Positions 4,261 to 41,269 of a stretch of DNA of 58,300 bases are shown in pieces. Position numbers and translations under genes: made by a program. Where the stretch lies: assembly GCA_008632985.1 (NCBI GenBank), contig QPGO01000084.1, positions 310,001 to 368,300 on the forward strand, written 5' to 3'. The notes beneath the pieces were generated by a model that saw only the letters and a list, made by a program, of their open reading frames with translations, was not told where the DNA came from and did not search any database. This DNA comes from Psammoneis japonica (lineage: Eukaryota). Every line of letters starts with the position of its first letter. The first letter of the stretch is position 1.

Positions 4261-7200
4261 CCCTGGAATGGACGATTCCAACTATCATGGGTGACACACC
4301 GACCCTGTACAGTCTTTTCTCTGCGAATGCGGTTTGACGGGCCATAGACCGACCGAGCTCGGCTGGTCGACGAAGTAAGTTGGAATCGTTGTGTGCTACG
4401 GATAATGAGCTGACTTGGGCAGAGCCAAAGGAGTTGAGAAACATGCTGCAACTACGAAGGCGGAAATCACACACCGGAATGATGAACAATGCCTTCGGAG
4501 GTACGTATCATGACGCGACCTTCGGGTATTCTTGCATTGTTCAAAGTAGATTGTGTGGATGATGAGGACATGCATGACTGCTGAACGCGGTGCTAATAAA
4601 ATTGGAATGCCGCAGTGTAAGTCAAGAATAGAAAGGGTAACCATATTAGTTCGAAACACGCGTCACTGTTGTTGTTTTTTCGGGCTTGGTTGCGTGGCGA
4701 TACTGCATTATCATTACACTCTAGCTTTGAGAGGATAGGGACGACGCGGGGGCGCTAGGCTGACTTTGAGGTTTTGACTTACTCGCAAATAAGAAAGCAC
4801 AACAAAAACATTTCTGAACCGAACAAACAATGTTCAATCCCCCTCCTACTCCACGATATCCGCTTCGCCAGGGCTAGAACCGCCCTCTACGAAAGAAGGC
4901 CAACACACCAAAACTTCCCTGCTACAAAACGATACAGTATTGAATTAAAAGTATGTCAGTGTTTATTGGATGCTACTTGCAAACTAAGACCAAAACGATC
5001 CAAGAGAAGCGACAAGGTTACGCGAGACGGGCTTTCTTCCTAGCTTCACATTGCTTCTGGAGTTCTTGAATCTGCTGGAGGAGGGCACGGTCGCCTTAAT
5101 CGTCGGCGTCATGACCAGAAGGTTCGCCAGCTGCAACTGCAGCAGCGGTATCGACACGACAGCCTTCCACGGAATCTTGAGCAACAGTTTCGTCGTTGGG
5201 GTAAACGGCGGTCTCGAGGCGGGGTCCGAAGTAGCGAATGATGCGATCCTGGAGTCCCCTGCCGGTGCAGAATTTCTTGCCAGGAAAGTCACTTTTCTTT
5301 GCCTTGTTGTTGAGTGTTTCTGTTCTCCTGCTCATCACAGTCCTTTCCACCTTTCGGATCTTCCCTTCACGTCATCATGGTCAAACTGGGCGGTGGTGCA
5401 GACAACTGCAATTTGCAATTTTGTGCATGGTGAAATTCTTTCGATTTGTTCACTGCTGCACGAACATGCTCAATGCCTTTTACAAAACTGCCACACGGCT
5501 GTCTGCAGCCTCATTACATCTTGGCCAAACAAAGAGCTCTTGATCCAATCGAATGTGACAAGGGGACACGATTTCTTGTACGGAACGCCAGAACACAAAA
5601 GAAATACCCCCAGCATGACAAAAGATGTCGGTGTCGCCAATTTGAACCTGAGAGAGAGAGAGAGAGAGCTTGTCCACCGCATTCGAGGGTTTTTGAGGAC
5701 GAAGAACATTGGCTCTGTACCCACGAGTCTATCTCACCTACCTTTTCTGAACGCATCGCTGTCCATACCGTTCCAACAACTTAATCCTTGAACTGCAAAG
5801 AGTGCTGGAGGCGCCAGAGCTTTGATATCCAAGGCGTCATATGCATTTTGCCCAGTTCGGTTTGAACTGAATTGTTTCTCGAGTTCATCACTTGCCTATT
5901 CTTGGGCTCATAATGAAAATTCGGTCGGGTGTCCATGCTTGGGCACGGGTCACTTATAACGATCAGTCTTGGCACCAGCCATGAGCAAAACCGCATTGAT
6001 TCAATGACGTGGGTGGCCGTTTCTAGTTTACATGTCGCAGAGATCGGAGCCTTCATACAAGGTCGATGCCGTGTCTTGTCGTGGAGACGCAGAGACGCAA
6101 ACTGTGCCATGTCATGGTGACTTTAGGGTTGGTACAGAAGAGGGACAAGCCGCTGCCTAGAATTCCCAACGAGTTAACTTTTGTGTGTCAGTAGGAGAGC
6201 TGTAAACTTCTGACTGAAACGACGGGTTGAAAGTTACAAACGTCCTTCTCGATTCATCCATCAGTTGCTATGTTTCCGTAATCGGTGCTGGCGTCACCGA
6301 ACCCGGTTTTGTCGTCAATCTCTTCAAAGGTATGATTTGCTGGTTCAACATTTTGCAATTGGTACTTCAGAGTCAAATAGTGAAGAACGATTCTGCTCTT
6401 GTTTGTGATAATCCTCGTGATCGTATTTGTATTGTCGATATGGATAATGTCCCAAACAACGGAAGAGTCATCCAGAAGCTCATGTTGGATTTCTCTGAGA
6501 ATGATGAGGCCATGACGAGCTCTCTCCAAACAAAAATTGCAATTCTATATACAATGGCGGATAGCATTACATCTCAGCGAGAAGGATCGGGAGGCATGGC
6601 GCCGACATGGTAGCTAGCCGATCCCTGCCAAGGTCCAAGTCAATTTATATCCAGAATCCAGAGGGCGATTTGCCACCCTCGTGGTCAACCAGCAGGAGGT
6701 CGGTTCTTTTCCTCTTTGTGGCAATCTCCACCAAGTGATTCTCTTCCCTTTGTTGCGACATGACATCAATGAGCAGCTTAGATGCTGGAGCGGCCCGAGA
6801 TGCGTGACAAACTCTCCATGAGATTGGTTTCGAAGCTCCGCCATTACCCTGCTCTTTCCGAAGAGCATGATAGAGGTTCCATTCATGAATCGCAGGGTGT
6901 TGGTGTCAAGCTCCGTACGACAATTTTACGTAGCTTTCTACGTCAGTTTGAGTTGTGAAAAACTCCTTCCGACGTCAGTCCCCCGCCCGATTTCGCGGAA
7001 TCCGGAATTGCACAAAGAGCGAATTCGTGTCGCGTGCTGTCGACAGCAGCTGATGGTCGCTCCCGGATGCAGCGGTGCACGATTCAGCTAAAGCGCTGTT
7101 CCAGCTAAAAGCAGGACCATCGCAAACAGTGTGAAAGTTTCAGGAACTCGGTTGTCTGTTCCTTTTCATGAGACAAAGACGTGTTTGTTCACATTGTCTC

Positions 7201-9399
7201 TCTAGAGGAGGTGTGACATTATTTGTGCGGCCTTTTCATGGGAAGTCTGTTGCAAAATTCTTGCTGCAGGTGCTCCATTTTTTCTCTTTTGCCGGTGTCT
7301 CAACAACAAGCTTGGCTTCCAAAGCAAAACATCCCAGCACATGACAGCCTGAATTGGAGTGTGCCAACCCATGAATTCTCTTTCACATCAACGCCACACA
7401 CACTTCCACCCCAGCAACTTTTTCATGTCAGAAAAGGCCTCTGTGTGCCATGCTGCGAGCCTGAGTTCTTGAGCTGCAAAAAAGTGACCCAAGCACTGGA
7501 AGCAGAGACCAAGCTCATTTCTCCAACAGACTGCAACTTTCTAGAACTGACCAAGTTATCAAAACTCCAAGCGACAGCCTTTCAAAGGTCCCAACAAGGT
7601 CCCTGGGTGTTGCACATGTGCCTTTTTGGATTGGCGTGTTGGCGGAAGTTGTGAGAGCATCTGGAGAGTTTTTGCTTCTGATTTGAGAGAAACTGTTGCC
7701 ACACTGAGCAGCCCTGTTGGTCAACCCCACAACTGGTGCAATGCCCCTCTGGACAAGTGCATTGATGGGTGTTGTGCTGCCACCACTTCATGGCTGGCGC
7801 CACTTGCGGCTGATTGTGTCCTGTCCACTGATGCCCCACTGGGCAGCCCCACCCAACATCGTCCAAATTGTTTGTGCAGCAAAATTTGTTCTTTTCCAGA
7901 TTGGCAGACATGCGTGTGAGTTTTTGTGCTGTTGCCTCATGACTGTGCACAGTTGATGAAAGGTTGGTCAAAATCTTCAAATCTTCCCGAGCCCTGCCAG
8001 GTGACCCCGCACATGGAGACATTCCATCCAATGCATGTGTGAACACATGCTTGTGAGCTTGCACCACTGTTTTGCCACTGGATGACTGGCAAGATGCTGC
8101 CTTGGATTGCAGGGCATGTGTGCAATGCCTGCGCATCTCCTGACGAGCAACCCTTCCACCACGTTTGTGCTGCCCCCCCCCCCCCCTGCAGCAAAAGCTG
8201 ACGCATGTCCAGGCACAAGGTTTTGCCGCTGCTTCTTCAGTTGGAACAGCTGACAAGATGCTGTCTCTTGTTTGGAACAGCTGACAAGATTTTGTCTCTT
8301 GTTCCTGTGTTGTCACAAGATCAAGTGTCTCATCTGCCCAGCCTCAGTGGGTGGCTTGTGTTTGCAATCAGTCTGATGTCGAGGTCTCTTCTCCAGCATT
8401 CGTGGGTTTCGGCCCCGCATTTGGAGAGACACAGCTGCACGGAAGATTGCTTCTTCAACAAAGGGCGGCTCACTTTGGTGAAGAAACAGAATTAAAATTT
8501 AGAATTGCATTGGATGGGGTGCTGCAACAAAGAGATGCCAGATGCGAAACACACAAAGAACCTCGCCAATCTAAGTGCCGGTCGACGGAAACTGCCGCTC
8601 ACCACAGACGCGGGAAACCAAGCCTGAGGAGAAGAAACAGAGCCAAAAAATTAGAAATGCATTGCATGGGGTGTGGCAACAAATGAAAGAGACACCAGAG
8701 ATGCACCCTCTCACTTCAGTGCCGGTGCATGTCATGCATGCCACTCCTGCAATGGATGCTGAAAGTCGCTCGGATGGCTTTTTCACGACGCGGCATTTCT
8801 GAAGGAACCGAGTTGCGTTGTCGATTTGGTCGCTTTCACATGAGTTTCTTGCGCATGAGTTTCAATGAGCCGCTGAAAAGAGAAAAAGGAAGACGATTGC
8901 AATGAGGGGCATGGCAAAATTTGATGCATCCAATGCAATGAAATGCAGCAACACAACAAGAGGCGTTCGGCAAATGCTCACACACCACAAGAAGCAACAA
9001 ATTGGAGTGGCAAGAGGAGCACAATTGCATTTTCAAAATGCATTCACTCATGACAAGCGAACAGAGAAGTGAGCGCACCCGCATGTGACCACAAGGGAGA
9101 GCAACAGCAGAATCACGAAGGAGAAAACAGCGGAGTGAAGGTGTGTGGCATCATGTCGGTGTGAGGTGTGAGGTGTGCATGTGCGTTTCAGTTTCCCTCA
9201 CTTTTGGCCTGTCAAAGGGATTGCCCGTGTCAATTTTTAACATCACATGTTTGTTCGTCTGCTTGCATGTGGATGAACCTTAAAATCAACACGAAGGGCC
9301 CATTTTTTTTGCACCGCGTGTCACATCCCGTCTGACTGGACATTCATGTCCCTGACCCGGGCATGTTGTCAAGAATGTGCTTCAAGTGTGGAGGAGGAG

Positions 9400-9537
9400 A
9401 TGCGTTTGCAAAATTGCCTCTTTTTCTGTTGGCGATCATTCATGTGTCCATTGCTCAATGATTTTGCTGCGGAGCTCGCACGCAGAATTCTACGGGCCCA
9501 ATGTCACAAAAAGTCCCACCCAGGGCTGGAACCCGTC
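9400..9537 (+). mobile_element. Right end of a mutated copy of the GACGCGTTCCAG-TIR MITE family
   Basis: gcaaaattgcctc...ttgctgcggagctcgcacgcagaattctacgggcccaatgtcaca...cccacccagggctggaacccgtc matches the right ends of the copies at 40318, 47630 and 55329, with TA>TG/CA changes. Confidence 0.75.
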
Positions 9538-10209
9538 TGTCCATCGCCAGGCGACAGAGGTCAAAATCTGACATTGCTTCTTCGGCAGGTGACTCAATCT
9601 CACTGTCAAGAGCTGTCCTTGGTGAGGAGTGAAATCAGGTCTGCTTCAGCATTGCCCTGACAGCTGCGCTGAACACAGAGAATCTTCTTTCGCAATGCAC
9701 ACACGACAGAACACATGGCTGCACTTGTTGGTGCATGTTGAGAGGCTTTCATCCAAAACAAATGCACACAACCACTCTGGGCGAGCACCAGGGCATGCAA
9801 GCAAGTCACCACCCTCTTTCACAAGAGCAGTTGATGGCGCAAATTCATGAATGCAGTTGGAAATCGGCTCCGGCAGTGCTGCGGCGATGGACTTCCCGCA
9901 CAAGAACCCCACATCAACCGCAGCGCCCGAAAGCATTGAATTGGTTGACGACGACTCGAGCGACAACGAATCATCGATGCCGGAGCGCACTGTGGAAGAA
10001 TGGATCATCCAAGCCTTCACTGAGAACCCCAAGCTCGAAGAGAGTTTGTTTCGTGCAGGCAAGATTTTGGCATTGCACCATCTCTTGGCAACCGACGATC
10101 GTGTTCAACACGTCGTCATGGGACATGCACGTCGTGCCATGACCGCACATTCATCCCCATCGGAGCAACGGGAGCACTGGAGGGCTTTGAGTGCCCCAAT
10201 TTGTTTCAC

Positions 10210-10548
10210 CTGACTCTGACATGTTGGCAGGCTCACACACCACTGCATCCACAAAGGCTGTTGTCATTTCCTTTGTGTCAAGCATGGTCTTGCTGATTGA
10301 CAAGATCTGTGCTTTCAACCAGATTGCCTCAATGACTCTCCTGTCACACTGGACATCACAAGCAATCGCAGCCTTCTTTGAGTGGTGCCACCCAGATGGA
10401 TCCATGATGACGCAGACATTGCACCCTTCTGCAACAAGAGCTTTGAGAAAACCACAGAGCTTGTTCTTGGCATCATGCACAGATGTTGAACTCCAAAGCT
10501 TGAAACACAACCAAGAAAAATCCACACCAACCGCTGGTTTTCCCTGAT
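10210..10548 (-). pseudogene. Possible XPG/Exo1 N-terminal (PIN-like) nuclease fragment, TA-mutated
   Basis: GKPAVGVDFSWL...LVAEGCNVCVIMDPSGWHHSKKA resembles the GK.vavD.s.W / v.vfDG...p..K pattern; weak match. Confidence 0.3.
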
Positions 10549-10949
10549 GGTCAGCAGAGTCAGCAGCAGTGGCTTGCTTGGAGCATGTGCTGAATGAACA
10601 CTTGACCACCTGGCAGTTTCTCAATCTCGTGCACAATTTGTGACCCGCCGTTGATTCCCGCTGCTGCCAATCAAAGCATCTGTGCAACTGTGGCGGAGTT
10701 GACAACAGACTGCCGCAATGCTGCGAGTGATTGAGGCAAAGCACAATCTGCCACTTCCATTCTGACTGCACTTGCATTGTCATCATCATCAGCAACATGT
10801 CATTCCCACGGTTGGTGTGGCATCTGGCATGATTTTTTTGTTTGTTTGAGTCAATGAACTGATGGAAGGACAGGCCAAGTGAAGCCATTTTTTCAGACAG
10901 CCCATGTCACCCAGTGGTGCAGTGTGAAGTGCAGATGGCACAGTGGGAT

Positions 10950-12430
10950 GAAACGGTGTCATGCGGGTGGGGAACAGGAGGGTTCTTGGGGTTGGATTGG
11001 CAAGTTGTGAGGTTGAAGTTTGGTGGAGCGGCAAAGAAGTTGGTCAGCAAGGATTTGGCGCTCATGAGACTGAGACTTTGAAAGGCCCGTTGGCTTTGGG
11101 TGGTGTGGTGGTGTGTGAGGCCAAACCTGGTCAAGGTGATGGTGTTCCAGGCAGTTGTGGCAGTGGGAAGAAGGCCGGTGGGGAGAGTTGGGCATTGGTG
11201 CAGGCGGTGCAAGCAGATGGGTGGTGAGAGGAGGATTCCAAGTTCCAGGGTGGGAGAGGTGGGGGGGGAGTGGATGTTTTTGGGTGTCGCCAAACAGGAG
11301 GTGATGAGTGAAGCATCCAGGCGAGCCAATGTGATCAATGGTGAATGGCACAAGGCAGATGCCAGCATCATTTGAGGGAGTGATGACAGCAGTGCCGTGC
11401 TGAGTCTTGTGGGTCACGCGGAATTTTCATTTTGTGCTTGTGTGGTGTGCCTTGGTCACAGGGTCTTCAATGGGGGCAGGCAAGCCAGGTGCTGGAAGCA
11501 GCAGGGGCTTGGGGGGNGGGGGGGGGGGGGGGGTGGCAACATTGACAGATTGACAGCAAGGCAGGAGTGGGTGGTGGGTGCAGCAGCAGAGGAGGCAGGA
11601 GTGAGCTTGACCTCAATGTTGGCAGGGTGCTTGAGTGGTGAATGTGGGATGAGGTTGGTGGGTTTGTGGTGGACGTCTGAGGAAGGCCATCATGCAGGGA
11701 GTTGGGCTGGGTGACATTGTGGCCAAGAGAGCAGCAGCAAAAGGCATGATCTCCACATGGGTCAGGGGGCAAGCCAACCAGAGGAAATGGCAGCTGTGGC
11801 TCACATTGTGGCATGAGTTGACAGACGGCAGGTGACAGGCACTGGGATGTTTTGGAGCGGGTGAAAGAGGAGTGCACAATGGAAGACTTGCCAGGGGTGA
11901 GAGGATGGATGAGAGTGCAGCGGTGACATGTGGCAGGACATGGCTGTGGAGGTGGTCAAGTTTGTCAGCACAATGTGGGTGACACATGGTGTGAGAGAGG
12001 GTCTTGAGTGGACAACACTCAACTGGAGCAGGGAGTGAGGGGGGTGGGGGGTTTGAGGCATGGCAGCAGAGCATTGCCCCAGTCCCCAGTGACAGAGTGC
12101 TTTGTGCAGACTGAGGGATTGTCTCAATGTGACCCAAGTTTGGAGAGAGCAGGCACAGAAGGGAAGCATGAGTCGGGGGGTTCATCAGTGGAGGAGGTGA
12201 GGCCGTGGGGGTTGCATGGCAGAGGGAGCAGGCCAGTGTTGGGCAGTGAAGAAGAGGGTGGCGCTGGCTGGCTGTTTTTTGCTGATGCACACCTGACACC
12301 AACTGCAGATGCAGGGAGGTGGGAGAGTGGCAATGTGTGTGGTGGAAAAGAGGGCCTGGGTGGGTGGTGAGGTGTTGAAGGAAGGTGTGGCAGTGGCGTT
12401 GGGTGTTTTGTTGGAAAGGTGACATCCACG
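10950..12430 (-). mobile_element. Degenerate non-LTR retrotransposon 3' region (CRE/R2-like, zinc knuckle plus restriction-like endonuclease)
   Basis: Minus-strand remnants SRSKTSQCLSP...LPF...DPCGDHAFCC...NSLHDGL, VDVTFP and LVPFTIDHIGSPGCFTHHLLFG; many frameshifts; both TA and CG depleted. Confidence 0.5.
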
Positions 12431-12989
12431 CGGTGTGTTGTGTGGAGTGAGTCTCAATGCACACGATGGAAGAGACTTCTCTCCCGTGACAGCTTGTGGC
12501 TGCACAGTCATTGAAGAGACGGACCAATGTTTGGCAGAAGACCAGTTCGCACTTAAAATCACATTTTTGTGTGTGAGTTCATGCCATTTGCATTTCCATT
12601 GAATTAGAGAATAAATTCCCTCAACGAAAACAATTCCTGCACTGTCACTGTTTGATTCCTCGCGTGATCTGCACTCGCCCCTCAACGGAAGAATTGTCTC
12701 TCCCACACTTGCACACTCACCTGCCTCGGGTTGCTGAGAAAAAAACCAACATCCGGGTTCAACGACAGCTTCAGAAGCGCAGGCCCCACACAGCAGCGGC
12801 TGGCATGTCTCTGCGTGTGTGCGCAAATTTGTCACGTGCCACATGAGAAGCTTGTGCTTCTCACACGCATGAGGCTACGACCAGCACAAAGGCACCTGTT
12901 GTGCCGGTCAGACATTTTGCATTGGTTTTTTTTTTTGGCCATCAACAAACCAGAATGCGCCACAAAAGTAAAAAAACATTTTTGAAATC

Positions 12990-13830
12990 ATGGACAGTGT
13001 GTCACCCGAAAATGGACTCTTTCCTTGCTGTGTCAAGAACCATCAGGACAAACCTGTCTTTGCCAATCAGAAAATCACGTTTGGGGCCATGGCGGACAGT
13101 TTCTACGAGCACATGCTCAAGGTGTGGTTGCAGGGCGGAAAGGCGGAAACAATGTGCCGCAAAATGTGTGACAAGGCGATCCAGGGCATGCACGATGAAT
13201 TGCCACACACGACACACGCCAACGCCGTCCGGTCTCACCTGCATTGCCGACAAGAACAGTGGTCGTGTTGATCACAAGATGGACCTTTTGGTTTGCTTCA
13301 TGGGAGGCAAGTTTTTCGCTTTTCTCCCGTGATGCTGGTGGTGTTGTTGGTCCTCATTTTCCTTCCCATGGCTTGCTTTCTTGTTTTGCGGTTAGGATTG
13401 CTCGCGCTTGGAGCCTGCACGGACCCGAAAGGCCTTGATTCGGACCGTGCTCAACGCGACCTCAAGACTGGAAAGGCTCTTACCTGCACGTGCTGTCAAA
13501 TGCACGCTCGCATGAACACGGGCATTTCGGCGGAATGGGTTCAGTTCCACCCCGACGAGGACTTTGCGATTGGTCACGGCTCTCCTCATCATCTCTTGAG
13601 ACCGGAAGCGGTCGAGTCCATGTTTGTTCTCAATCAACTCACGGGTGATCCAGCGCACCAAGAATGGGGATGGACCACCACAAGACAAGATGGAATCTTT
13701 CTTCTTGGCAGAGACTCTCAAGTGTTTGCATTTGTTGCAGGATCCAGATGCTGCACACCCGTGGACATTTTAGACAAGCATGTCTTCAATGCGGAAGCAC
13801 ATCCAATGCGAATCTTTCCAGCAATTGACA
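12990..13830 (+). pseudogene. Glycoside hydrolase family 47 alpha-1,2-mannosidase, 3' fragment with one intron (13307-13395)
   Basis: FGAMADSFYEHMLKVWLQGG, DHKMDLLVCFMG|GLLALGA, LLRPEAVES, DKMESFFLAETLKCLHLL, HVFNAEAHP; removing the gcaagt...ttag intron restores the frame; deletion after EWGW; Tyr>Cys/His throughout. Confidence 0.9.
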
Positions 13831-14030
13831 AGGAAGGGAAGCAAGCAAGCAAGCAGGCCCCACTCCATGCTCTAGCAGAGGGCCCTCCACCATTTTGGAG
13901 AGAGAAGATTGGGGCTACGGCAGTGCGACCACGGTGTTTTTTGACGATGTCATGTGTTCAACACAAAGAGTCCGTCGCATCTGTTCTCAATCAATGTCTC
14001 CGGAAATGAAATTGGTGTGAAAGTCTTCTT

Positions 14031-14216
14031 CTTAAAAGCGGAGCTCGTTCAAGCCGACGTCATCCAACGGTCGGCACGGAAAACCGTCAGCCGTTAGCAC
14101 ATGAATCGCCAATCGCCAACGGTTTCCCTGTCTCTCGCCACATTTTTCCTTCCACCACGAGAGAGCAGCTCACAATCTAGACGATCATTCGCTTTTCATG
14201 CCGCTCCACTTTTAAG
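14031..14216 (+). repeat. 5' LTR of gypsy 1
   Basis: Direct repeat of 22670-22855 with 6 substitutions; inverted termini CTTAAAAG...CTTTTAAG. Confidence 0.95.
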
Positions 14217-14231
14217 TGGTGCTTCGACACG
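14217..14231 (+). promoter_or_regulatory. Putative primer-binding site
   Basis: TGGTGCTTCGACACG directly after the 5' LTR; TGG is complementary to tRNA CCA; the tRNA is not assigned. Confidence 0.6.
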
Positions 14232-14259
14232 TCATTCGAACACATCATCTTCGGTCTGC

Positions 14260-16756
14260 ATGACCATGGCCGATCAACCGCCGGCTAAACGCGTTAAAAC
14301 GCAATCCACCGACGAATGTCTCGCCAACCCCCTGTCCAAAACTTTCATCCCGAAACAGCGCATGTCCCACACGCATGGACGAATCACCTTCTCTTCTTGT
14401 CCCCCCCATCACCGCCAAAATGGGCGACGCCGAACGATGCTTGGCATTCAACATCAACAAAAATGCCGTCAACAGCACGTCCGGACTCACCCATGCCAAC
14501 TGTCTCACAATCATGGGCAATCTAACGAACACCATCAGCCTTGTCTAAGTTAAAACCAACGAATTCAAGACAACGGGCAAATCCTCCCTCAAGCAACCGG
14601 CCAACCTGACGGCACTGTCCCACCACAACACAGCAGGCAACCTCATCCAAAATTGCCTTGACGACGAAGGGCAACTCAGACCGATCCAAGACGGACCCGT
14701 GGCAAATTGCCGCCCCGACGGAATCATGTGCGCCAAAATCAGAGGCATCATTGACCTTGCGTCCCTCAGCGAATCAGCCAGGAATCCCACGATCACGTTC
14801 TTTGTTCGTTTGCCTGTGGAGAACGCAAACGTAACCAACGCCGCCAGAAACCAAGTGAATCCACTCACCTCCAATGGCCCAAGCAACTGCATCACATTGG
14901 ACAATCAAGCTTGTCAGGATGTCATCTGTGACAACAACGATGACGCCATCCAAGAGCCACTCGATCTCCAAGCACCCAATTTCACTGACCCCGACGAAGC
15001 AACCATCTCCACCGAAGCAAAAGGCATGAGGATTGATGCTCTCATCACCCAAGCAGGGCACAAGACCATCCTAAATGACGTTTTTACGTCCATCGCGCCC
15101 ACATTCGTGGACGACCCATTCAAAATGCTCAGCCGAGTCCATCAAACCACTGCCCAGTCAGACGGGACAACCATCTCATCGACAGTGCAAGAATGTCGTG
15201 ACAATTGCAATGTCGCACTCAGTGCCCTCCCCAATCACCCAGACTCCGAGTGGCAGTCCAATCCTCTTCGCACATTCGTGGACAATCTCGATCCCCAGAT
15301 TCGTCAAAAGATGGAGTCGGATGGATTCCGACGTCATGTGGAAACGGTGTCACTACGTTGTTCTGACCAAACAAACCTCATCCAGGAGGCGTTCTCAGCC
15401 GCCAAGAAAGCGGAATCAGCTCTTGCGGCGAATCGTCTCTTCATTCAAGGCGAGCTCCATGAGACTCACGGCTTTGCTGCCGTTGTTCAGCAATCCCCGG
15501 CGTCCTCATCCCTTGCATCCATGAACACTCCCACTCACCAGCAAGCTGCAGTCAATCACAGCGCAGCCGAAACTGCTCTCAATCGCTGCAAGACCGCAGG
15601 CAAAGGCTGTTGGGGCTGCGGATCAACCGATCATCTGTGTTGTGACGCCAAAACCAAAACCATCACTTGTCCCAGGGGTGCAGAACCAGAAATCCAGAAG
15701 AACGCAGAAATCGTCCGCAAGGACTTTGTTGAACGCATGAAAAAGTGCCGAAACGGAAACCGTCGCCGTGCCCAAGGACAATCCAACGCAGGCAATCTTC
15801 TGCTGTCAGCCCTGCTTTCCCCTCAATCTCGGACCGGAGGGAACGATGAAATCACGAAGCTCATGCTCAGCTCCATCAAACAGTCGCTGCTCGGAAAGGA
15901 CAACGGCAAGGAGGAGAAGGAAAAAGAAGCATTCACGTTCCACTCCTGCGTCCTCCAATCATCCACTCCGAGCAATCTGCCGCAGCCACCAATCCCGGTC
16001 AACAACACACTTCCCCACATCGTCCTCCAGCTGGGATCACCCGACGCTACGTTCAACCCCGGCATTCATGCCATCGTGGACAGCGCCGCTGCCCCAGTCT
16101 GTGGGAACAGCGACCACTGGATGCCTGTCGCCAAGGCTTGTCCCGAGCTCGTCAAGAGCACCTGTCATGCGAAGGATCATTGTTCGCACATCATCCTCTC
16201 CGGCGTCGTTCAGAAGGACGACAAAACGAAAGTTGATGCATCCACCAACCTTCCCGCAGCTCTAGAATTTTTCATGCCATGCATGACGAAGAATGGTCAC
16301 CCCACGTCACTGAAGATCGCAGTCGGGAAGAGCGTCTCGGCAAACTGCATCATCGGAATGAGCTTCATCTCGACAGCTCAACTCGTCATGGATTTCTCTG
16401 ACAACGTTGTCGAGTCCAAACTTCTGGAATGCGAACCATTTCCAGTCGAATGTCGCACCCCATCATGCTCGACACCGAAGATCATCCCTCGCACGGAACC
16501 GGTGTCCACACCGAGCTTGATTTCGATCAAGCAACAACTTTCCGATGTTGACAAGTTCATCACGAACTGCTCACACGATGACAAACCTCGTGCAGAAATC
16601 CTCACCAACTTGACTTCATCACGAGTCAAGTTCGACCTTGGTCCATCAACGGCCACACTTTCTGGTTGGTGCTGTCCCATGCCCAAACCTCTGTCGCACT
16701 CCATGATGTCAAAATCAACACATCAAGCCAACCAGTTGCATCACGCAAATCACTGA
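14260..16756 (+). pseudogene. gag: gypsy 1 ORF1: Gag (zinc knuckle) plus aspartic protease, frameshifted near the 5' end
   Basis: 685-aa ORF 14699-16756 containing CWGCGSTDH knuckle and AIVDSAA...CIIGMSFI protease motifs. Confidence 0.8.
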
Positions 16757-19700
16757 AATTGCTTGGCTCACTGTTGACGTTTCAAACACCATCTGCAGGT
16801 CATCAAGCACCTGCATCCCGCAAACGTCGTCAAATCATCATCCCCAAACCTCCCTGTCGAGCCAAGAAGCCAAATCTCTTCGAAGGACAGAACCTGCCTG
16901 ACGTCCAGAGTAACTTCCAATTCCTTCATGAATCAAGAGTCAGAAAAGTCATCAGGAAGAATGCACGGCCGGCCAGGGCCGACGACGACATCGATCAGAA
17001 ATTTACATCTCGCGTTTGCGAACACGACAGAGACTGTCAAGAGCTCCAGAAACTAAAATTCGATGACAACATGCCAGAGCGAATCAAAACACGAGTCATC
17101 GAACTGGTCAAGGAATGCTGGTGCTGTTTCTGCCAAGAAAACGTCAAGATTCCAATCCAAGATTATGAGTGCGTCATCGACACAGGGGATTCAAAACCAA
17201 CCGCAGCCAAGAACATCCGATGCGGTCTCCACGAAACCCCGATTGTGAACAAAGCCATCGACGCGCTCCTTGAAAACGGACAGATCGTCCCCAGACACAA
17301 GCAGCGAATGGCTCTCTTGCATCGTTCTCGCTCCCAAACCTCATCAAGAAGACGTTGCGGACATCAACGAGTTCATGTGGCGATTTTGCATCAGCTGCAT
17401 CAACTTGAATCAAGTCACCAAAGTCGTCTCATGCTACATTCCATGCTGCGACGATGCCGTCGAGCATGGTTTTGGATCATCCAAATGCTTTTTCCTTTTG
17501 GACGCATGCAGTGGCTGCCATCAGATCAAAATGGAAGAACTGTCCGCCGCTAAGACAGCCTTCGCCGCCCCTCAAGGCAGAAAATGTCGACACACAGTCA
17601 TGCCCTTTGGAGCAGTCAACGGACCCACCACATGCGTCATCATGGCCTACGACCTCAAGGACAACTGGGACCATGAAGCAAAGCAGATGGGTGCCAAACT
17701 GGACGACAGCAACGGGTCAACCATCATCACAGATGATGACTTCGGATTCACAGAGAGCTGCGAAATCGGCCTCAAACATGTCGAGGCAATTCTTCGCGTC
17801 GCTCGTCGTTGTGACCTCTCATGGAAGCCATCCAAATGCTTGTTCTTCCCGGACTCAGTGGAGTTCGTAGGGCATGACTTAACGCGCCAAGGCAATCTGC
17901 CAGCAGACTCGAAAAGCGGACTCCCAAAACGATGGAAACGACCAACGACTGTCCGCGACGCATCCAGTTTTGTCGGTTTTGGGAACTTCCATCAAAGATG
18001 TGTTCCCTGCTTTTCGGACAGAGTCGAGCACATGCGCAACCTTGTCAAAGACAACGAATTCGATCACAAGATGCTGCCGTCCGAATGGACAAAAGAGCTT
18101 GACGACGAATTCGAGGACATCAAATCTGCCATCCTCTCTAAACCCCTGTTGCGTCGCATCGACCGCAACAAACGGCCGCATCTCCGCACCGATTTCTCAG
18201 GAAAGGGCATGGGCTGTGCACTTCTCCAGCCCGGAGACGACAAAGAATCCCTCGCAGCCATGGAACGGGAAGATGCAGGAGGCAAATGCGAATTTGACAC
18301 CACGTTGAGCGGTCTCCGACTGCTTCCATGCGCCTTCGGATCTAGATTGTGCAAAGGCATCGAACGCTGTCTTCACTCCTGCATGGGAGAGGGTGCAGCC
18401 CTTCGCTGGGCGATCCACAAAAACTCTCATGCAGTGCACGGCCGTCCATTTACGAACATCGGCGACTGCTTCGGTCTCCGATGGATCATGTTTTACGACG
18501 GATGCAACCCAGCGATCACACGCCTCCAAATGGAGCTCGTCTCATGGTGGTTCACAATCGTCCACCACCCCAATCGCATGGTTGTCGACGCCGACTGCTT
18601 TTCCAGATGTGGACAGGAAATTGACCCAGACCCACTGCTCACAAAATGCACGACCATCGTTCAACAACAGCTCATGTCGAATCCTCCGGCAGCCACCGGA
18701 GAAGAAGTGCAAGCTGAGAACATGCCAGGCTGTCGACGAAACACCAAAGCTTCGGCCAATGTTTCGACAGCCATCAAGCCCTGCACTGTCAAGAAAGGCG
18801 AAATCGAAGACTCCATCATGCTCGAAAACATGCCAATCCTTTTCGGAGTTTCGAGTGACACAACACCAAAGTCCACGATCCAATGCAGTGGAGCAACGCA
18901 TGCATCGTTTCAATTGCTCACACGCTGCTGGGCCACACACGGATTCTCCTCTGGACACTTCTTCTCATCTTGCAAGGAACATCAATTTCCGCTCACAGTC
19001 GTGGTCGCCACCGATTGCGACATGCCAGGATGCAACCTCATGCAAGAGATCGGCAAGGTTCCAACTGTCTTGTCGTCAGCGAACCATCTCTTGAACCATG
19101 TCAAGCGAAATGTTGCACAGGACCTTCAAGGGTGCTGCATCACGTCACCGCATCTGCCGGACGCATCATCACAACTGGCGTTCGCAAGAACGCAAGCTGC
19201 CATCACAGCGGAAATGCGGAATCGATGCCAACTCAAGTGCTTTGCATTCCAAACAACGCCATTTTTTAAACGAACTGTCCCATCGCAATTCAAGAAATCG
19301 TGTGCAATGGATGGGTGGCATGTCGAAGAAGACGAGATCCGATTTGCTGAAATGGGCGACACGATCGACGACTCAGCGACATTTCTGTTCGGCTTCCACA
19401 TCGGTGTCACAGGACAGAAAGTTTCAGTTCAAATCGTCCGGCCACCCCCGACCCGTTCGTCCATCTCACAATTTATCCACAAACCCTTCAACTCCAAGAG
19501 CTGCGCGATCACCGCTCTGCCCGACACTGCAACCGATGAAGCCGAGGATGACAGATTCATGCTTGAAAAAGTGGCACCTGCTCAACCACCAAAGCAGTCG
19601 GACGCACTCATCATCAGTCATCTCATCAAAAGAGGACCCAGACCAGCGAATCCACGCGGCACAGCAACATGCGACGTGGATCACCCCGCTCCCCCCATCG

Positions 19701-22401
19701 GTCACTACAACTCCAACCCCTTTGGTCAAGTCTTTGGAATGTTTTTCCAAGATGAAGACTCCAAGACAAGAATCCGCTGCATTTCAGCATACGAATGCAT
19801 GTCGTGTTGGGGGCTGGAAAGAAATCTCACGCACAGGATGTGTGCAGACCCCCGCCAATTGAACCCACTCACAAACGGAGTCCCAGGCAAGACAAGCCAC
19901 GCTGTGCTGCAAACCACACACGACAAACTCACAGATGTCAGACTGTCATCCACGGAACTCATCGACACGTCACAGCAAACGGCTCCTGCAGCAACTGCTC
20001 AAGCATTTCTAAATGGCTCCACAACGACCCGACTGCCCAATCGAGAAACCTGGATCCAAGAGTTCTCACGTGACCAAGAAACAAACCTCATGATCAGAAT
20101 GATCAACAACCCCGCCTTGGTCAACAAAGAGCAATTGCAAAACATCCACCACTGCTGTCGACAACCGATGCAAGCAGGCAACATCCGAGTCGAGGACGAA
20201 ATGCTCGTCATCCGTGAATCGGTCGATTCAATCGGCAGTTTTGCCAAACTGCGCATCGTCCCATCATCTCTTCGCAACATCATCTTTGTTGCTTTTCACA
20301 CGAATCCCATTGGAAGCCACTTTAGCGTGCACTGCACCTTTCACAGGATCCGACTTCGCTTTTTCTGGCCGACCATGTGCAAGCACATCGCCGACCTCAT
20401 CAGCAAATGCCCGGGATGCACCCTCGCGAATGCTCGATGCAGACAAAAATCAGAACTGGCACACTCTTTCCCCGTCGATGAGCCATTCAAGCCAATGCAC
20501 GCGGACGCATGCATGGTCGGACGTCATCAAGGTTTCCAAGGTGAAAAATGCCACATGAACATCGTTGACGGCATGAGCACTTTTGCAGTGTCAGAGGAAA
20601 TCTGCGGCGAAGTCAATGCCGAATCATTCAGCAAAGCCATCATGAAGATTCTCCTCAACCATGGACTGTGTCGTGCAATCGTGATTGACAAAGACTCGAA
20701 ATTCCGTGGAGTGTTCATCCAAGCCATCAACCTGCTCGGACTCAACTTGCACCAAGCATCCGGAGGAAAACACAACCCTGTCCTCACAGAACGACATCAC
20801 GCTTTCTTGAACAAATCTTTGCGCATTTTTTGCAACGAACGCGACTCCGTCCAGACAGCCACAGAAGGTGTTCAATTGTCGGCCTGTGCATGGAACTCAG
20901 CCCCAGTCGCAGGTGCAGATGTCAGCCGATCTCTCGTCGCCATCGGCCGTGAATGCTGATTTCCCATCGATTGCACGGACTCCAGTCATGTCAACCTGCG
21001 GCCAACAACAACATCAGTCGAGAATTGCGCCGAACATCTGCACCGTTTACTTCCCATGTGCCAGGAAGTTTTTTGAGTGCTCATCCAAGAGCACAGAGCA
21101 ATGCACCGCAAACACATCAACAGCAACCGACCAGAACCTTTGGTTTGCTCTGTCGGAGACTTCGTTTTCATTCGAAGAGCAGCAAAATCTGATGCTCAAC
21201 GCGGCCGAGTTGACAAGATCATGTGTCGCCACACAGGCCCATGGAAAACAACTGAGAAGCTTCCAGGAGCTTCCTGCCAAATCTGTCGCTGCAAGACCAA
21301 TGCAGAAGACAAAAAGCATGCTTCGCACACAACCCCATGTCCCACTGAACTGGTTCCATTTCCACCTCTCACAGGACCTGACAATGCATGCGGACAAATC
21401 AATCGACAAATCAAGAAGCACCCATTTTCGGAGGCTGGCATTGACTCCCACACGCCACTCCAACCCTGGAGCGTTCAACGCGATGATGAAACGCAAACAT
21501 CTCAATCACTGCTGTCGACAGCCAACATGGCGTGTGTCGAATCTGCTGTGCATTTTCCCACACTCGCTGAACTCAACGATGAACTCGACGGGGTGCACAC
21601 CGAAGACGGGTTCTTGCCAGCGATGACGGATCATCTTAAACCCTCATCGAACAAAGTGTTCATCGAGGCACTCGAAGGCAGCACATCGAGCACAAACAAC
21701 AGTGCGGACTCGACTGGCCCCCAGTCCAACATCGGAGCGCCCACAGTGCAGCAAAACCACAAACAATCACACTCGGTGCCGAATCTCAATCAGCTCATGG
21801 CCCGCATCATCCAAAGCAACCACAAGTTGTTCTTCATGTCGTGTCGAGCACCAGGCACAACTCGCACCGAATGGAATCTTGTTCAAGTTAACCTTGAGCA
21901 AACTGTGGCGGAGAATCCCAACGCTTTCTCCGACAGCAAAATCTGCGTCGACTTCTGCACACGGCATCCGCATGATGCGCAACTCAATGCCCCAAACCAG
22001 CGACATTGGAAGGAATGTCACGAGCCAAATGGACAATGCATTCTCCACAATGACTTTCATCTGCTCAAACCTTCCCCGAATGAAACCAGTTGCGCACGTG
22101 ACAAACGATTGATCGTTTTCTCCCAGTGGGGCACATCCATCACCCAGACATGTTCCTTCATGGACCGCTCAATTTTGCAACGATCAACGGACGCCAAACA
22201 CGCGATCGCATGTCAGCTCACGACTGGAAAATGTCATCATCGTCATCCGAACACTGCGACAATGAGTCACCAAGCCCCAACCTCTCCCATCCATCGCACT
22301 CACATCACGTGAATGCACAGTTTCACACTGTCCATCAAGACCCTGCCATCGAAGCCCGACTGTCTGCTCTCCTCACATGCGAGTGCACGCGCAACAATTG
22401 A
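16666..22401 (+). pseudogene. pol: gypsy 1 Pol: RT, RNase H, MTase-like insert, integrase, C-terminal unknown domain; frameshifts/stop near 17290, 20959, 21077, 22130
   Basis: RT LLDACSGCHQI / MPFGAVNGP / IITDDD; RNase H LRTDFSGKGMG / GEGAALRWAI; integrase H..H..CPGC, HAD, IDKDSKF, ERHH, HTGPW. Confidence 0.9.
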
Positions 22402-22669
22402 TCCCAGCTGCTGATCAATGTTTGACGGCAATCCCTGCCGCACTGTGCTCAAACCATTCCAAAATGGAGTTGGCGCCAAAGTCAATCTCAGGTTCAAAAC
22501 GAGCCACCTCCTTCTTTTTCTTTTTCTTTTTCCAATGGGGTTTTTGCGTTCAAGCCTTTTTCCCGAATCATCACTCATCTCCCATCACAATCCTCGTGGT
22601 TCCACGTTCCGCTTTCATCCTCATCTTGTCAGAAGCTCAAGATTGGCCTCTGCCATCTTTTCTGGGTGG

Positions 22670-22855
22670 CTTGAAAGCGGAGCTCGTTCAAGCCGACGTC
22701 ATCCAACGGTCGGCACGGAAAACCGTTAGCCGTTAGCACATGAATCGCCAATCGCTAACGGTTTCCCTGTCTCTCGCCACATTTTTCCTTCCACCACGAG
22801 AGAGCAGCTCATAATCTAGACGATCATTCGCTTTTCACGCCGTTCCACTTTTAAG
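22670..22855 (+). repeat. 3' LTR of gypsy 1
   Basis: Direct repeat of the 5' LTR, preceded by a short purine-rich gggtgg and followed by TSD TCTT. Confidence 0.95.
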
Positions 22856-23304
22856 TCTTTCTTGGCAACGTAGAGGATATAATTTATATCCTATTCGCCG
22901 GATAGCATATAAAATCGAATTTGATTAGTCCGACTGAAAAAAATCTTGATGTACCCCCTTTGGAAAATTTCAGTCCATCTAATCAAATGATTTTTATGTG
23001 TTTCAAAGGACATTTATATATATTGTATAGAAAGAGCGCGTATGACTTTAAATAATAAAAACACTCCAGTAACGAATGTTATAGATTTGTCATGATGTGC
23101 GAACACACGCCTACAACCGATAAGATGAACGCGATACATAGTCTCTATTCCAGAAGATTGAAGATCTTAAATCACCAATCACAAAGCACATAGCATCGCA
23201 TTGCTTGCTGTTGCTGTCTTTTGAATGCGGTGAGTTTGTTTGTTTCTATATGCTCCTCTATATGCTCCTCAACGATCGCTTTTGCCGTTAATGTCATCTC
23301 ACTG

Positions 23305-38734: not shown

Positions 38735-40317
38735 CTATCGTGTGATGTACGAGAACACGGAAGAACGTCTGATATTCCTCGTGTAAATCTCCGATAGCCA
38801 AATGCGCTCTAGTAGCAGTACTTGATTCATGGCAACTAGAGTAGACTCTTTGGTCGACTAATAGAAATACTTCGTACGCAAGCTTTACACAATATCTGTT
38901 CAGGACAGTAATACAACCACTACACGGTTAAACCTCGGCCCTACTAAATTATCACTAGACGCAACGGAATGCGTGACAGCATTGGAGCCGCTGTCCATGA
39001 CGTCCGATTCCGTTCATGCACAACTCAGCAACAAGTCTTTTTTGCTGTCTTTGTCTCCAGCAAGTGCAGCTTGTGGTCAATTCCCAAGAACCAGAGATGC
39101 TTTGTTGACTCCCAGCAGCAGATGGCAAGCAATTGCCTTGCTTCCAGTGTGGCTGTTCCATGCCCTTTTTGTGATCATGTCAAGCCAAAATTGCTTGTGT
39201 TTTCCACTCCTGCCTGTGCTGTCACATTGATGATTGGGTGAGTTCACACATGCATCAATCTGAACACAGATGAAAAAACAACTGGTTTTAAATTCTGCTG
39301 CACCTTTGCCCAGCATTGCCAGCACCGGCTGACCCACCACACTTCCAGTGCAGCACCAAGTGTGTGCCAGAAAAAAAGAGCTAGCCAGGAGATGGCACCC
39401 AATGAGTGCAGCTGGCAATGGTGCAGGCACCCCAAAGCATGAGCACTTTGTTGCCAATTTTGGGCTCTCACTCAATCGTGGACAAAGTGCTGCAACCCAG
39501 TTCCTGATTTGGGTTGTTGAGTGTGTCTTGCTGCACTCCTCTGCCTGATCCACAATGAGCACCAGCTGGTCTTTGGCCAGGCACTCCTGGCATTTGTTGC
39601 GTGTGGGCTGGCCCTGAAATCTGCCTCAGCCAGTTCTTGTTTTCTGACTGGAACTGTCTCAGCAAGGCCAAGTCACACAACAGTTGAGCCAAGCATTGCG
39701 GGGTGACAAACTGTTGCCAGCCAACCTCAGTGTGCACATCTCAAAGGGCTCAATCATGACACTCTGCCTCAGCATCCAAAAAGCTTCAACGGCCCTCTCT
39801 TTGAGACAAGTGAGTGCCCCAACATTCTAACATCCAAGTCACCAAGACATCGTTGAGGATCCAGAACAGCAGCACATCTGTGCTCAACATTTGCTCAGGT
39901 CTGACAAGGCCAGCCATCTCTGGAAAGACAAAAGATGTCACAGACTTGACTTGTCATTGCAGCTCCACTCCAGATCATGTGGCAGCAGCTGTTCAAGCTC
40001 AAGCCCAGCTGCTTGGTCTGTTGCACCAAAAAGGCAGGGTTCCAAGGCAGCTTTCACACTTTTTGCTTGCAAAGCACTGTCATGCATGGTGAGCCTGTCT
40101 GAAGGTGCCTGTTGCTTCAGCATCAGATTGCTTGCATGTTCCTGGGACATTGAATTGACAAATTTTCCTCAAAGTTCAGTCAACACCTGTGATCTGCTGG
40201 GAGTTTTGACCACTCACCAAAACACCCCACCAACCAATTTGCTGCTGCCTTTCACCCAAGCTGCTCTGTGTTCCTGAGAACATGAGCTGTGCACTAAAAT
40301 GTGTTCATTGTGCAGCT

Positions 40318-40715
40318 GACGCGTTCCAGCCCTAGAGGTGGGAGCTCGTAGCACTGACGTGTGACAACAATAATTTTTGTCATCCGTCGTATGTTTCGTA
40401 CGTAGCTTTCTACGTGTGATATTTAAAAAATATTGTCCAGACTCGCTGTTTTGCGAAGCCCCAGACGTTTTATATAACAAATTTATAGAAACAATAATAC
40501 GCCAGTTACATTCTTCAATGTCTGAAGAATGTAACTGGCTAAGTAAAAAATGATGTACTTCAATCATGTGCGAGTTTGTGCGTTCGCAAAATTGCCTCAT
40601 TTTCTGTTGGCGATCATTGACATTTTAATTACCGTATAATTTTACTACGGAGCGCGCACGTAGAAGTCTACGGGCCCAATGTCACACGGATTCCCACCTA
40701 CGTCTGGAACGCGTC
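40318..40715 (+). mobile_element. MITE copy A (398 bp)
   Basis: TIRs GACGCGTTCCAG / CTGGAACGCGTC, 4-bp TSD AGCT; near-identical to 55329-55725. Confidence 0.92.
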
Positions 40716-40881
40716 AGCTCCACAAAATCAGCAATGCAGTGACAAGCACAGCAGATTGTCTTGAAAATTGTGTGCTCACAGTGTGCCTCATGCACTCTGT
40801 TCATTGGATGGCCATGCCTTCCTCACAGCATCAGATTGTGGCTCACCCTCCACAAAGAGACAACTCACTCTCTGAGCCACT

Positions 40882-41260
40882 TGCAATGTGCGTTGTCATG
40901 CACGCATTGCATGTGTGTGTCTGTGTGTTGAACAAAAGTGTGCTTCAATCGCACGTCAATCGTGGGTTCGTACGAAGTGCAGATCAGTCACACAGAAGTG
41001 ATTGGATGTCGAGAATCGCAAATGCGATCGTGCGATGATGTTGACATCTTGTGTGTCAATGTCAATCACATCCGGACAATCTGTCGTCACGATCACATTC
41101 TCCGAAAGGCCTTTTGTCTGCAGGAGCAGCACAAAAGGTTTGGGCCATTGAGAACCCGTTCGGAGAAACCCAAAATGATTGCGCAGAAACAGGTCTCATA
41201 ATTTTCACTTTTTGAACTTCATTCTACTTTCGTTTGCACTCGTTCTTCGAGCACAGTGCA
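40882..41260 (+). repeat. 5' LTR of gypsy 2
   Basis: Aligns to 45650-46000 with a 28-bp indel and many TG/CA swaps. Confidence 0.92.
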
Positions 41261-41269
41261 TTGTGTGTG

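Follow-up and report, generated by a model that had tools for sequence, protein, structure and literature searches.

What process has removed the dinucleotide TA from long blocks of a diatom chromosome? The question is raised by a 58.3 kb stretch of the Psammoneis japonica genome (contig QPGO01000084.1, positions 310,001 to 368,300), which is referred to below as the window and to which all within-window figures apply. The window carries two unrelated Ty3/gypsy retrotransposons with long terminal repeats (LTRs), designated gypsy 1 and gypsy 2, a family of miniature inverted-repeat transposable elements (MITEs) with terminal inverted repeats, a HIT-family gene, an exon of a DEAD-box helicase, and a GH47 fragment. 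The ratio of observed to expected TA is 0.37 in the window and 0.09 in the region of gypsy 1, where the ratios of CA and TG are about 1.4. In the depleted DNA, TA was converted to TG or CA after integration of the elements. The agent is probably a chromatin-directed enzyme that deaminates the adenine of 5'-TA-3' on either strand of integrated DNA.

Direction and specificity of TA loss

Segmentation by a two-state hidden Markov model (HMM) over TA, CA, and TG steps divides the window into eight depleted blocks (29,205 bp with 116 TAs) and nine normal stretches (29,001 bp with 1323 TAs). The depleted blocks combine a TA ratio of 0.1 or less with an excess of CA and TG, have sharp borders, and form a mosaic with normal DNA. 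In the per-kilobase profile, the TA ratio is 0.5-0.8 in normal DNA and 0.00-0.12 in the blocks, where CA and TG reach up to 1.5-2.7.

Comparison of repeat pairs alone cannot polarise TA against TG and CA, and protein homologues were therefore used. A column was considered a conserved tyrosine of gypsy 1 if tyrosine was present in at least 60% of its 14 homologues. Within the tblastn span 16813-22375, the 31 conserved-tyrosine columns of gypsy 1 now encode cysteine (16), histidine (10), phenylalanine (3), and tyrosine (2). The overall composition of the gypsy 1 pol frame is shifted in the same way, with 0.40% tyrosine and 4.77% cysteine compared to 3.0-4.6% and 1.4-2.5%, respectively, in the 14 homologues, which share 35-50% identity with it. 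The analysis of gypsy 2 employed 32 of the 150 listed homologues, selected at an identity of roughly at least 35%. None of the 14 conserved-tyrosine columns in its depleted parts retains tyrosine, the residues being cysteine (6), histidine (3), phenylalanine (3), and arginine (2), whereas tyrosine is intact at seven of the ten columns in a spared island of the same element (Fisher p = 0.0003). Cysteine or histidine thus occupies 35 of the 45 conserved-tyrosine columns in the depleted parts of both elements. The replacement of conserved tyrosines by cysteine and histidine in depleted DNA indicates that TA is the ancestral state and that TGY and CAY are derived.

The specificity of the change was assessed in 895 conserved columns of the two elements, 697 of which are identical. 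Tyrosine changed to cysteine 22 times and to histidine 13 times, with no reverse changes. The other substitutions of this class are also directional: Ile to Thr (8), Leu to Pro (6), Val to Ala (4), and Thr to Ala (5) are each matched by zero or one reverse change. Substitutions that require A>G in the contexts CA, AA, or GA (Gln to Arg, His to Arg, Lys to Arg, Asn to Asp, Glu to Gly, and Asp to Gly) number zero to two each and are balanced by reverses, which corresponds to background. As A>G outside TA is no more frequent than background, neither a general A>G bias nor the WA-type signature of a polymerase can account for the changes.

Flanking bases and the two strands of TA

Sites of the form N1-TA-N2 were grouped according to whether the flanking bases are pyrimidines (Y) or purines (R), giving YTAR, RTAY, and the asymmetric class of YTAY and RTAR. 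A sequence-only reading of the window had noticed that the TAs left in gypsy 1 are mostly CTAA, TTAA, CTAG, or TTAG and that RTAY is almost absent. This is borne out by the count: the 43 TAs retained at 14031-22855 consist of 26 YTAR, 16 YTAY or RTAR, and a single RTAY. The 116 survivors of all depleted blocks comprise 70 YTAR, 41 asymmetric, and five RTAY sites, compared to 220, 685, and 418 among the 1323 TAs of normal DNA (chi-squared 133.9, p = 8.6e-30). The tally of NTAN survival proposed with the sequence-only reading, here made within the window, therefore reveals a strong dependence on the flanks. The effect stands when only unmutated transposons, with 28, 100, and 58 sites in the three classes, serve as the baseline (chi-squared 75, p = 5e-17), and RTAY occurs at most twice in each of the seven blocks that retain TAs. 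Survival proxies are 0.32 for YTAR, 0.060 for asymmetric sites, and 0.012 for RTAY. Normalization by all Y-R steps of each skeleton class, which is valid because transitions keep the purine or pyrimidine class, gives 0.30, 0.061, and 0.012 and thus the same relative survival.

The survival of N1-TA-N2 was modeled as exp(-(k[N2] + k[complement of N1])), with the adenine of each strand as an independent target. A model that distinguishes only pyrimidines and purines has rates of 2.24 for TAY and 0.58 for TAR and outperforms a flat model (likelihood-ratio chi-squared 129). It is in turn outperformed (p = 5e-6) by a model with four rates for the base at position +1: 2.77 for T, 1.87 for C, 0.94 for G, and 0.31 for A. 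The four-base model fits the ten strand-collapsed classes acceptably (Pearson X2 11.1, 6 degrees of freedom, p = 0.09). The preference for TAY over TAR put forward from the letters alone is thus present as a faster rate, but it is graded over the four bases rather than a clean switch between pyrimidine and purine. The square root of 0.32 x 0.012, 0.062, is close to the 0.060 seen for the asymmetric class, as expected if the two strands act independently.

Surviving TACN sites are enriched in TACG, which makes up 17 of 36 in depleted blocks and 163 of 726 in normal DNA (odds ratio 3.1, p = 0.002). A CpG following the TA, perhaps methylated, seems to slow the fast strand, and CpG methylation may confound this protection of TACG.

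Since "+1 is a pyrimidine" and "-2 is a purine" are complementary statements, survival cannot separate them, and only the outcomes of mutation can. The strand rule states that YTAY becomes TG and RTAR becomes CA. It was scored at sites with secure polarity and unchanged purine or pyrimidine flanks, about 26 in the window. YTAY changed to TG at 13 sites, five of them from repeat pairs (48387, 48390, 9452, 9465, and 9468) and eight in tyrosine codons, and to CA at three, all in tyrosine codons. RTAR changed to CA at eight sites, three from pairs (48363, 48480, and 9483) and five in isoleucine codons (ATA to ACA before a purine), and to TG at two, position 9459 and one Ile to Met change. The resulting distribution, 13:3 against 2:8, is non-random (Fisher p = 0.004), and 21 of the 26 sites follow the rule (binomial p = 0.0025). 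The observed share of 0.81 compares to 0.79 predicted by the kinetic model from survival alone. In the symmetric RTAY context, tyrosine codons of both elements changed to TG 14 times and to CA 10 times, as expected.

Several sites were left out of the count. Positions 48438 and 9521 have flank transversions, one site lies in an indel, and a MITE fragment at 47.6 kb is misaligned. Three sites of the young MITE pair, of less certain polarity, and one Tyr to Cys change in the spared island of gypsy 2 were also omitted, and all four fit the rule. The claim that all six asymmetric sites of the repeat pair at 48.3 and 49.9 kb obey the rule is upheld for four clean sites (cTAc and cTAt to TG, gTAg to CA twice); the fifth (aTAg to aCAc) has a flank transversion, and the third gTAg falls in an indel and is unscorable. 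The MITE changes tactac to tgctgc and cgtag to cgcag, quoted earlier in favor of the rule, are both present (9465, 9468, and 9483), but the same copy contains a violation, ATAA to ATGA at 9459. Overall, the results support the conclusion that flanking bases govern both the survival and the outcome of TA.

The same signature was found beyond the window. Among the 205 retrieved gypsy homologues, two (P0310 and P0291) lack tyrosine altogether and have cysteine or histidine at 13 of 15 and 10 of 11 conserved-tyrosine columns, respectively. One of these proteins, used as a query against metagenome contigs, retrieved 50 loci, most of them TA-normal. Three independent elements among these loci have depleted blocks: L025, L007, which is partly depleted, and L019. 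Locus L024 is a 98.8% identical copy of L025, the same element in two records. The survivors of L025, L007, and L019 are 68 YTAR, 79 asymmetric, and five RTAY, compared to 2206, 5419, and 3030 in the 43 remaining loci (p = 5e-17). The preferential early loss of RTAY therefore recurs in genomes other than that of the window and in assemblies made independently of it. Element L007 has been caught half-way, with a TA ratio of 0.39 and RTAY already reduced to 5 of 84. Its YTAY tyrosine codons changed to TG six times and to CA once, which fits the rule. When the outside loci are added to the window, the interaction table reads 21:9 against 4:10 (p = 0.02). Differences between L024 and L025 in TA, TG, and CA (1:5, apparently opposed to the rule) were dropped, because their polarity is ambiguous and unmutated control pairs look similar. 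Under strict criteria, comparison of the DNA of L024 and L007 with relatives polarised too few sites to be of use. LTRs were sought in L025, and none were found.

Post-integration action on chromosomal blocks

The positions of the blocks and elements are listed in Table 1. The largest depleted block contains older decayed sequence, a mutated MITE copy, the GH47 pseudogene, and gypsy 1, and ends about 150 bp into the 3' LTR of this element. A single N at 11517, an assembly gap or an ambiguous base, lies within it. Apart from decayed sequence that is unidentifiable, the depleted blocks contain both gypsy elements, the old MITE copy, and the GH47 fragments. The TA-normal islands among them are young MITE copies and 1.2 kb inside the pol frame of gypsy 2. 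Blocks cross the borders of elements, and one terminates within an LTR.

Table 1 Features of the window and of environmental elements with depleted regions
Feature	Position	Strand	Remarks
Largest TA-depleted block	6944..22715	.	61 TAs in 3065 TA+CA+TG steps (HMM, per-kb profile)
GH47 (ER mannosidase-like) pseudogene fragments	12972..14009	+	Pfam PF01532 on 13272-14009 and 12972-13268
Old MITE copy, fully mutated	9375..9537	+	Within depleted block; 8 TA-type differences, TA always in the two young copies
Gypsy 1, Ty3/gypsy LTR retrotransposon	14031..22871	+	LTRs 14031-14232 and 22670-22871; pol domains
Gypsy 1 pol frame	17249..20959	+	1236 codons stop to stop; RVT_1, RNase H, Integrase_H2C2; heavily mutated
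Depleted block, also CpG-poor	38962..40293	.	3 TAs in 314 steps
Young MITE copy with terminal inverted repeats	40318..40716	+	Normal TA; island in depleted DNA; 97% identical to 55329-55726
Gypsy 2, unrelated second Ty3/gypsy element	40882..46000	+	LTRs 40882-41260 and 45650-46000
Gypsy 2 pol frame	42423-45620	+	Reverse transcriptase, RNase H, integrase
Spared island in continuous gypsy 2 pol frame	43690..44892	+	78 TAs in 226 steps
Depleted block	44911..47640	.	Gypsy 2 3' part and downstream sequence; 14 TAs in 598 steps
MITE-family copy	47630-48018		Member of a family with terminal inverted repeats and a length of about 400 bp
Depleted block with mutated 230 bp repeat copy (48317-48541)	48008..49149	.	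HMM segmentation
Unmutated 230 bp repeat copy (ancestral reference)	49859..50085	+	Normal DNA, 1.5 kb from mutated copy
Depleted block	52639..55339	.	9 TAs in 607 steps; CpG observed/expected 0.08-0.23
Second young MITE copy	55329..55726	+	Normal TA; 97% identical to 40318-40716
Depleted block	55715..58024	.	7 TAs in 521 steps
Environmental depleted regions	L025:3559-9331; L019:267-1737; L007 whole; L024		Mosaic in normal flanks

Transitions constitute 23 of the 29 mismatches between the two copies of the 230 bp repeat, of which 15 are TA-type, six CpG-type, and two other, and at all 15 TA-type differences the TA is in the copy at 49.9 kb. The MITE, a DNA transposon, is mutated in the old block and intact where it was recently inserted; the two young copies, which are TA-rich and lie in old depleted DNA, differ at eight positions, three of which are TA-type.

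The LTRs of both elements flank a pol region with the order of reverse transcriptase, RNase H, and integrase. Those of gypsy 1 are 96.8% identical over 187 bp, and the six differing positions include four of the TA type and one of the CpG type. The LTRs of gypsy 2 have eight sites at which one repeat has TG and the other CA, and seven of these sites are in the symmetric R-YR-Y context (Fisher p = 0.005). Because the two LTRs of an element are identical at insertion, such discordance indicates that each LTR was mutated independently once the element had integrated.

Gypsy 2 is depleted at 40705-43685 and at 44911-46000, the latter as part of a block that continues beyond the element to 47640, and is spared at 43690-44892. 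The spared 1.2 kb are flanked by saturated DNA on both sides. Patchy, tract-like action of the mutator or gene conversion from an intact copy are possible causes of the island. Either gypsy element as an ancestral reference for the other was rejected, since at 23% identity they are too distant.

The largest depleted block includes the GH47 fragment immediately upstream of the inserted gypsy 1, and several tyrosines of the human enzyme (5kk7_A) align to cysteine or histidine in this fragment. The mutation of this host-type fragment indicates that the mutator is not limited to transposon-encoded sequence. The mutator may have spread into neighboring DNA, or the fragment may be a duplicated pseudogene. 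The existence of both spared and mutated repeat copies and of blocks that cross element borders shows that the process acts on chromosomal domains rather than on transcripts, cDNAs, or pairs of homologous sequences.

Several blocks are also depleted of CpG, with observed/expected ratios of 0.08-0.5 (7001-13000, 39001-40000, 46001-47000, 53001-55000, and 56001-58000). The CpG ratio of gypsy 1 is 0.98, and the combination of scarce TA with normal CpG implies that CpG decay is a separate and slower process. Two separable processes thus seem to affect the same domains, and the one acting on TA is by far the faster. CpG methylation has been described in diatom transposons (PMC9998398), which fits the loss of CpG in the blocks. 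The depleted blocks may thus correspond to methylated chromatin.

Mechanism, alternatives, and known systems

The process that probably operates in the window is a hypermutation of whole blocks of transposon DNA after their integration, which would convert 5'-TA-3' at the DNA level to TG or CA nearly to exhaustion. The two strands of each TA would be independent targets, with the rate of A>G set mainly by the 3' base (T and C fastest, G intermediate, and A slowest). RTAY, a fast target on both strands, would be lost first, and chance would decide between TG and CA. YTAY and RTAR, with one fast strand, would mostly yield YTGY and RCAR, and YTAR, with two slow targets, would provide the bulk of the survivors. 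The acceleration by a 3' pyrimidine, estimated to be three- to nine-fold, may reflect a greater difficulty of flipping out an adenine that stacks on a purine at its 3' side. The simplest chemistry would be deamination of adenine to inosine, which is read as G, so that the attacked base would be adenine and the enzyme a deaminase. The choice of blocks probably depends on silenced, CpG-methylated chromatin. Changes of Tyr to Cys or His, Ile to Thr or Met, and Leu to Pro would inactivate an element irreversibly.

The closest known system is that of the chlorarachniophyte Bigelowiella natans, in which hypermutation at TpA in viral DNA integrated into the genome was described by Mettrop et al. (bioRxiv 10.64898/2026.01.13.699255). 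According to the preprint, 231 of 302 de novo mutations in mutation-accumulation lines fell in two integrated viral regions, and 230 of these 231 hypermutations were A>G or T>C, all 230 on TpA. The preprint also reports that TpA-poor genes are enriched for reverse transcriptase and DDE domains, and it proposes an ADAT2 homologue as the enzyme. Both systems exhibit clustered blocks of foreign or transposon DNA that are depleted of TpA and enriched in CpA and TpG. The nearly exclusive A>G and T>C changes at TpA in B. natans have their counterpart in the repeat pair at 48.3 and 49.9 kb, where TA-type changes predominate among the transitions. The two systems differ in host, which is a rhizarian there and a diatom, a stramenopile, here. 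They differ also in extent, since LTR retrotransposons, a MITE, and a pseudogene are near saturation in the window (0.03-0.1), whereas the ratio given for the virus is 0.45. Older blocks of the window have lost CpG as well. De novo mutations were observed directly in the accumulation lines, whereas the process in the diatom is known from sequence comparison. The main text of the preprint contains no analysis of the bases flanking TA, although its supplements may hold one.

The process in the diatom would be the same as that in B. natans. A tentative extension is that stramenopiles and rhizarians share a chromatin-directed defense enzyme that edits adenine at 5'-TAY-3' in double-stranded chromosomal DNA. 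If so, this enzyme would be a natural DNA adenine editor, a mirror image of the repeat-induced point mutation (RIP) of fungi, with the flank signature as its fingerprint, and it would rid transposons and integrated viruses of their tyrosine codons and of signals that contain TA.

Several observations weigh against adenine deamination with the strand rule as formulated above. The strand assignment rests on few sites, and survival was measured relative to other DNA, not to true ancestors. ATAG and CTAT have no survivors where 3.5 are expected. Two conserved-tyrosine columns of gypsy 2 (43617 and 45453, + strand) read CGC, encoding arginine, a double change that the model does not predict; they represent TA>CG via CAC or TGC, for which a weak secondary activity at CAC may be responsible. 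The YTAY tyrosine codons of L024 and L025 changed to TG twice and to CA five times, and their heterogeneity relative to the window and L007 is borderline (p = 0.058). The share of A-type products in base composition (YTGY and RCAR against YCAY and RTGR) is 0.556 in depleted and 0.56 in normal DNA, where 0.61 would be expected for an 80:20 and 0.54 for a 50:50 distribution of outcomes; the hypotheses are thus only about 0.06 apart, and the YCAY-rich composition of gypsy 1 spoils the baseline. Changes of Leu to Pro or Ser at YCA followed by a pyrimidine, opposed to the rule, number four against one Val to Ala change at GCA followed by a purine, which agrees with it. TA steps that span two codons changed to TG in 8 of 31 cases between pyrimidines and in 2 of 28 between purines, which differs only at p = 0.084. 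Furthermore, all sequence results are symmetric under complementation, in which "A then Y" is equivalent to "T after R", so that adenine is not singled out.

This symmetry leaves room for a much less likely alternative, with the same process and the same flank rule, in which the thymine of 5'-R-T-A-3' is attacked instead, for example oxidized or otherwise modified so as to pair with G (T>C). The TG outcomes would then be events on the opposite strand. Thymine-modifying enzymes and 5-hydroxymethyluracil occur in some protists. The present results provide no positive evidence for thymine as the target, and the authors of the B. natans preprint prefer adenine deamination, by analogy only (bioRxiv 10.64898/2026.01.13.699255).

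Slightly less probable again is a symmetric property of the duplex, by which RTAY would be easy and YTAR hard to open or bind. No strand rule would then exist, and the 21 of 26 consistent sites would partly be due to luck or ascertainment. The survival data, which do not separate effects of position +1 from those of -2, are compatible with such a property, as are the 2:5 ratio in L024 and L025, the flat composition test, and the four Leu to Pro or Ser changes. However, the outcomes in the window differ between YTAY and RTAR and continue to do so when the outside loci are included. The share of rule-consistent outcomes also agrees with that predicted from survival alone, L007 follows the rule at 6:1, and most of the discordant sites between the LTRs of gypsy 2 fall in the symmetric class.

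Error-prone repair by a polymerase-eta-like enzyme is already disfavored and has a very low probability. Polymerase eta characteristically produces A>G at WA, which covers TA and AA. In favor of such an enzyme, TA belongs to this motif, and, because the blocks are losing CpG, repair triggered by deamination could take place in them. However, AA is untouched: Lys to Arg (2), Lys to Glu (0), Asn to Ser (0), and Asn to Asp (2) are matched by reverses, and the AA ratio of gypsy 1 is 1.16. Nearly all changes are transitions, 21 of the 23 in the pair at 48.3 and 49.9 kb being TA- or CpG-type, and gypsy 1 is TA-poor despite its normal CpG content.

Editing of element transcripts by an ADAR-like or tRNA-deaminase-like enzyme, fixed through reverse transcription, is for practical purposes refuted by the two-strand pattern and is rated even lower. 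ADAR resembles the mutator in its A>G change, its preference for a 5' U, and its targeting of repeats, and the best-studied targets in the window are retroelements; the preference of ADAR for a 5' T or U is noted in the B. natans preprint (bioRxiv 10.64898/2026.01.13.699255). However, RNA editing changes only the sense strand, whereas gypsy 1 contains both TG and CA outcomes, as its cysteine and histidine codons show. The LTRs of gypsy 2 diverged after integration, a DNA transposon and a host-type pseudogene are affected, and the blocks cross element borders. The enzyme ADAR2 acts on RNA, and its hot spot is given as 5'-UAG, with a 3' G (PMC10661471), whereas the change in the window affects both strands of DNA and is slower at TAG than at TAY.

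The idea that no TA was destroyed, and that the pattern instead results from a RIP-like CpA>TpA change in the "normal" DNA or from assembly or base-calling artifacts at modified bases, draws on the lack of polarity in repeat pairs and on the one N at 11517, but it is already contradicted and scarcely credible, given that conserved tyrosines became cysteine or histidine only in the depleted parts, that the HIT and DEAD-box genes are TA-normal, and that the signature is also carried by independent contigs from metagenomes and by two public proteins with 0% tyrosine.

The favored process, TA-directed adenine deamination in chromatin, shares with RIP the function of genome defense, the use of a single type of transition tied to a dinucleotide, and the skewed dinucleotide blocks in transposon copies. 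RIP makes TpA from CpA. The chemistry in the window is the opposite, as TpA is destroyed and CpA and TpG are made. The target of RIP is C in duplicated DNA, which changes to T (PMC7296669, PMC3318451). In the window, one copy of the 230 bp repeat is mutated and the other is untouched 1.5 kb away, indicating that homology alone is not the trigger, although so short a repeat is a weak test.

The link to TadA inferred in the sequence-only reading finds no clear support, and agreement with TadA and ADAT deaminases is partial: as with these enzymes, T or U precedes the target adenine, and TAC is mutated fast. The natural target of TadA is a UACG loop. The relative protection of TACG is the opposite of a simple UACG optimum, and TAT is mutated at least as fast as TAC. 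A TadA-8e variant edits adenine in the context YAC (PMC13109818). APOBEC3 enzymes likewise inactivate retroelements by deaminase-type hypermutation, with fixed context-specific transitions. However, APOBEC3 deaminates C of minus-strand cDNA before integration, which gives G>A on one strand (PMC12548423), whereas the changes in the window are A>G and T>C on both strands, follow integration, and extend to a DNA transposon.

A search of the literature, with most subscription journals outside its coverage, found no description of diatoms with RIP-like mutation or with hypermutation at TpA. Hypermutation that targets only TpA in foreign DNA was otherwise encountered in one study, the 2026 chlorarachniophyte preprint. 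The occurrence of the same signature at saturation in diatom transposons and in environmental contigs suggests that this defense is widespread among marine protists. The flank rule (T and C faster than G, and G faster than A, at position +1; RTAY lost first; YTAR surviving; TACG slowed) offers a quantitative fingerprint for candidate enzymes and already argues against mechanisms of the ADAR and polymerase-eta types.

The host HIT and DEAD-box genes are located in TA-normal DNA. Among homologues of the HIT reading frame with a named source, the best all come from diatoms (Attheya, Helicotheca, Thalassiosira, Cyclotella, Skeletonema, and others), at 57-74% identity. Pfam searches of 89 further reading frames from the depleted blocks identified nothing beyond the GH47 fragment, and the ESM Atlas returned nothing usable for reading frames of 800 and 516 amino acids from normal DNA, apart from one weak lead to a MULE transposase (0.90). 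Tandem repeats with a period of about 180 bp and units that are 70-81% identical occupy 26394-28152, in TA-normal DNA. The transitions among them are mostly other than TA-type (e.g., 31 of 48).

The loss of TAA and TAG leaves dead elements with long stop-free frames. The region 13000-24000 contains 18 frames of at least 150 codons on both strands, in 11 kb and in several phases, among them the 1236-codon frame of the dead gypsy 1 pol. The length of a frame is therefore no sign of an intact gene in depleted DNA. Gene predictors will call such elements as proteins, and the two tyrosine-free "proteins" P0310 and P0291 are already present in public libraries.

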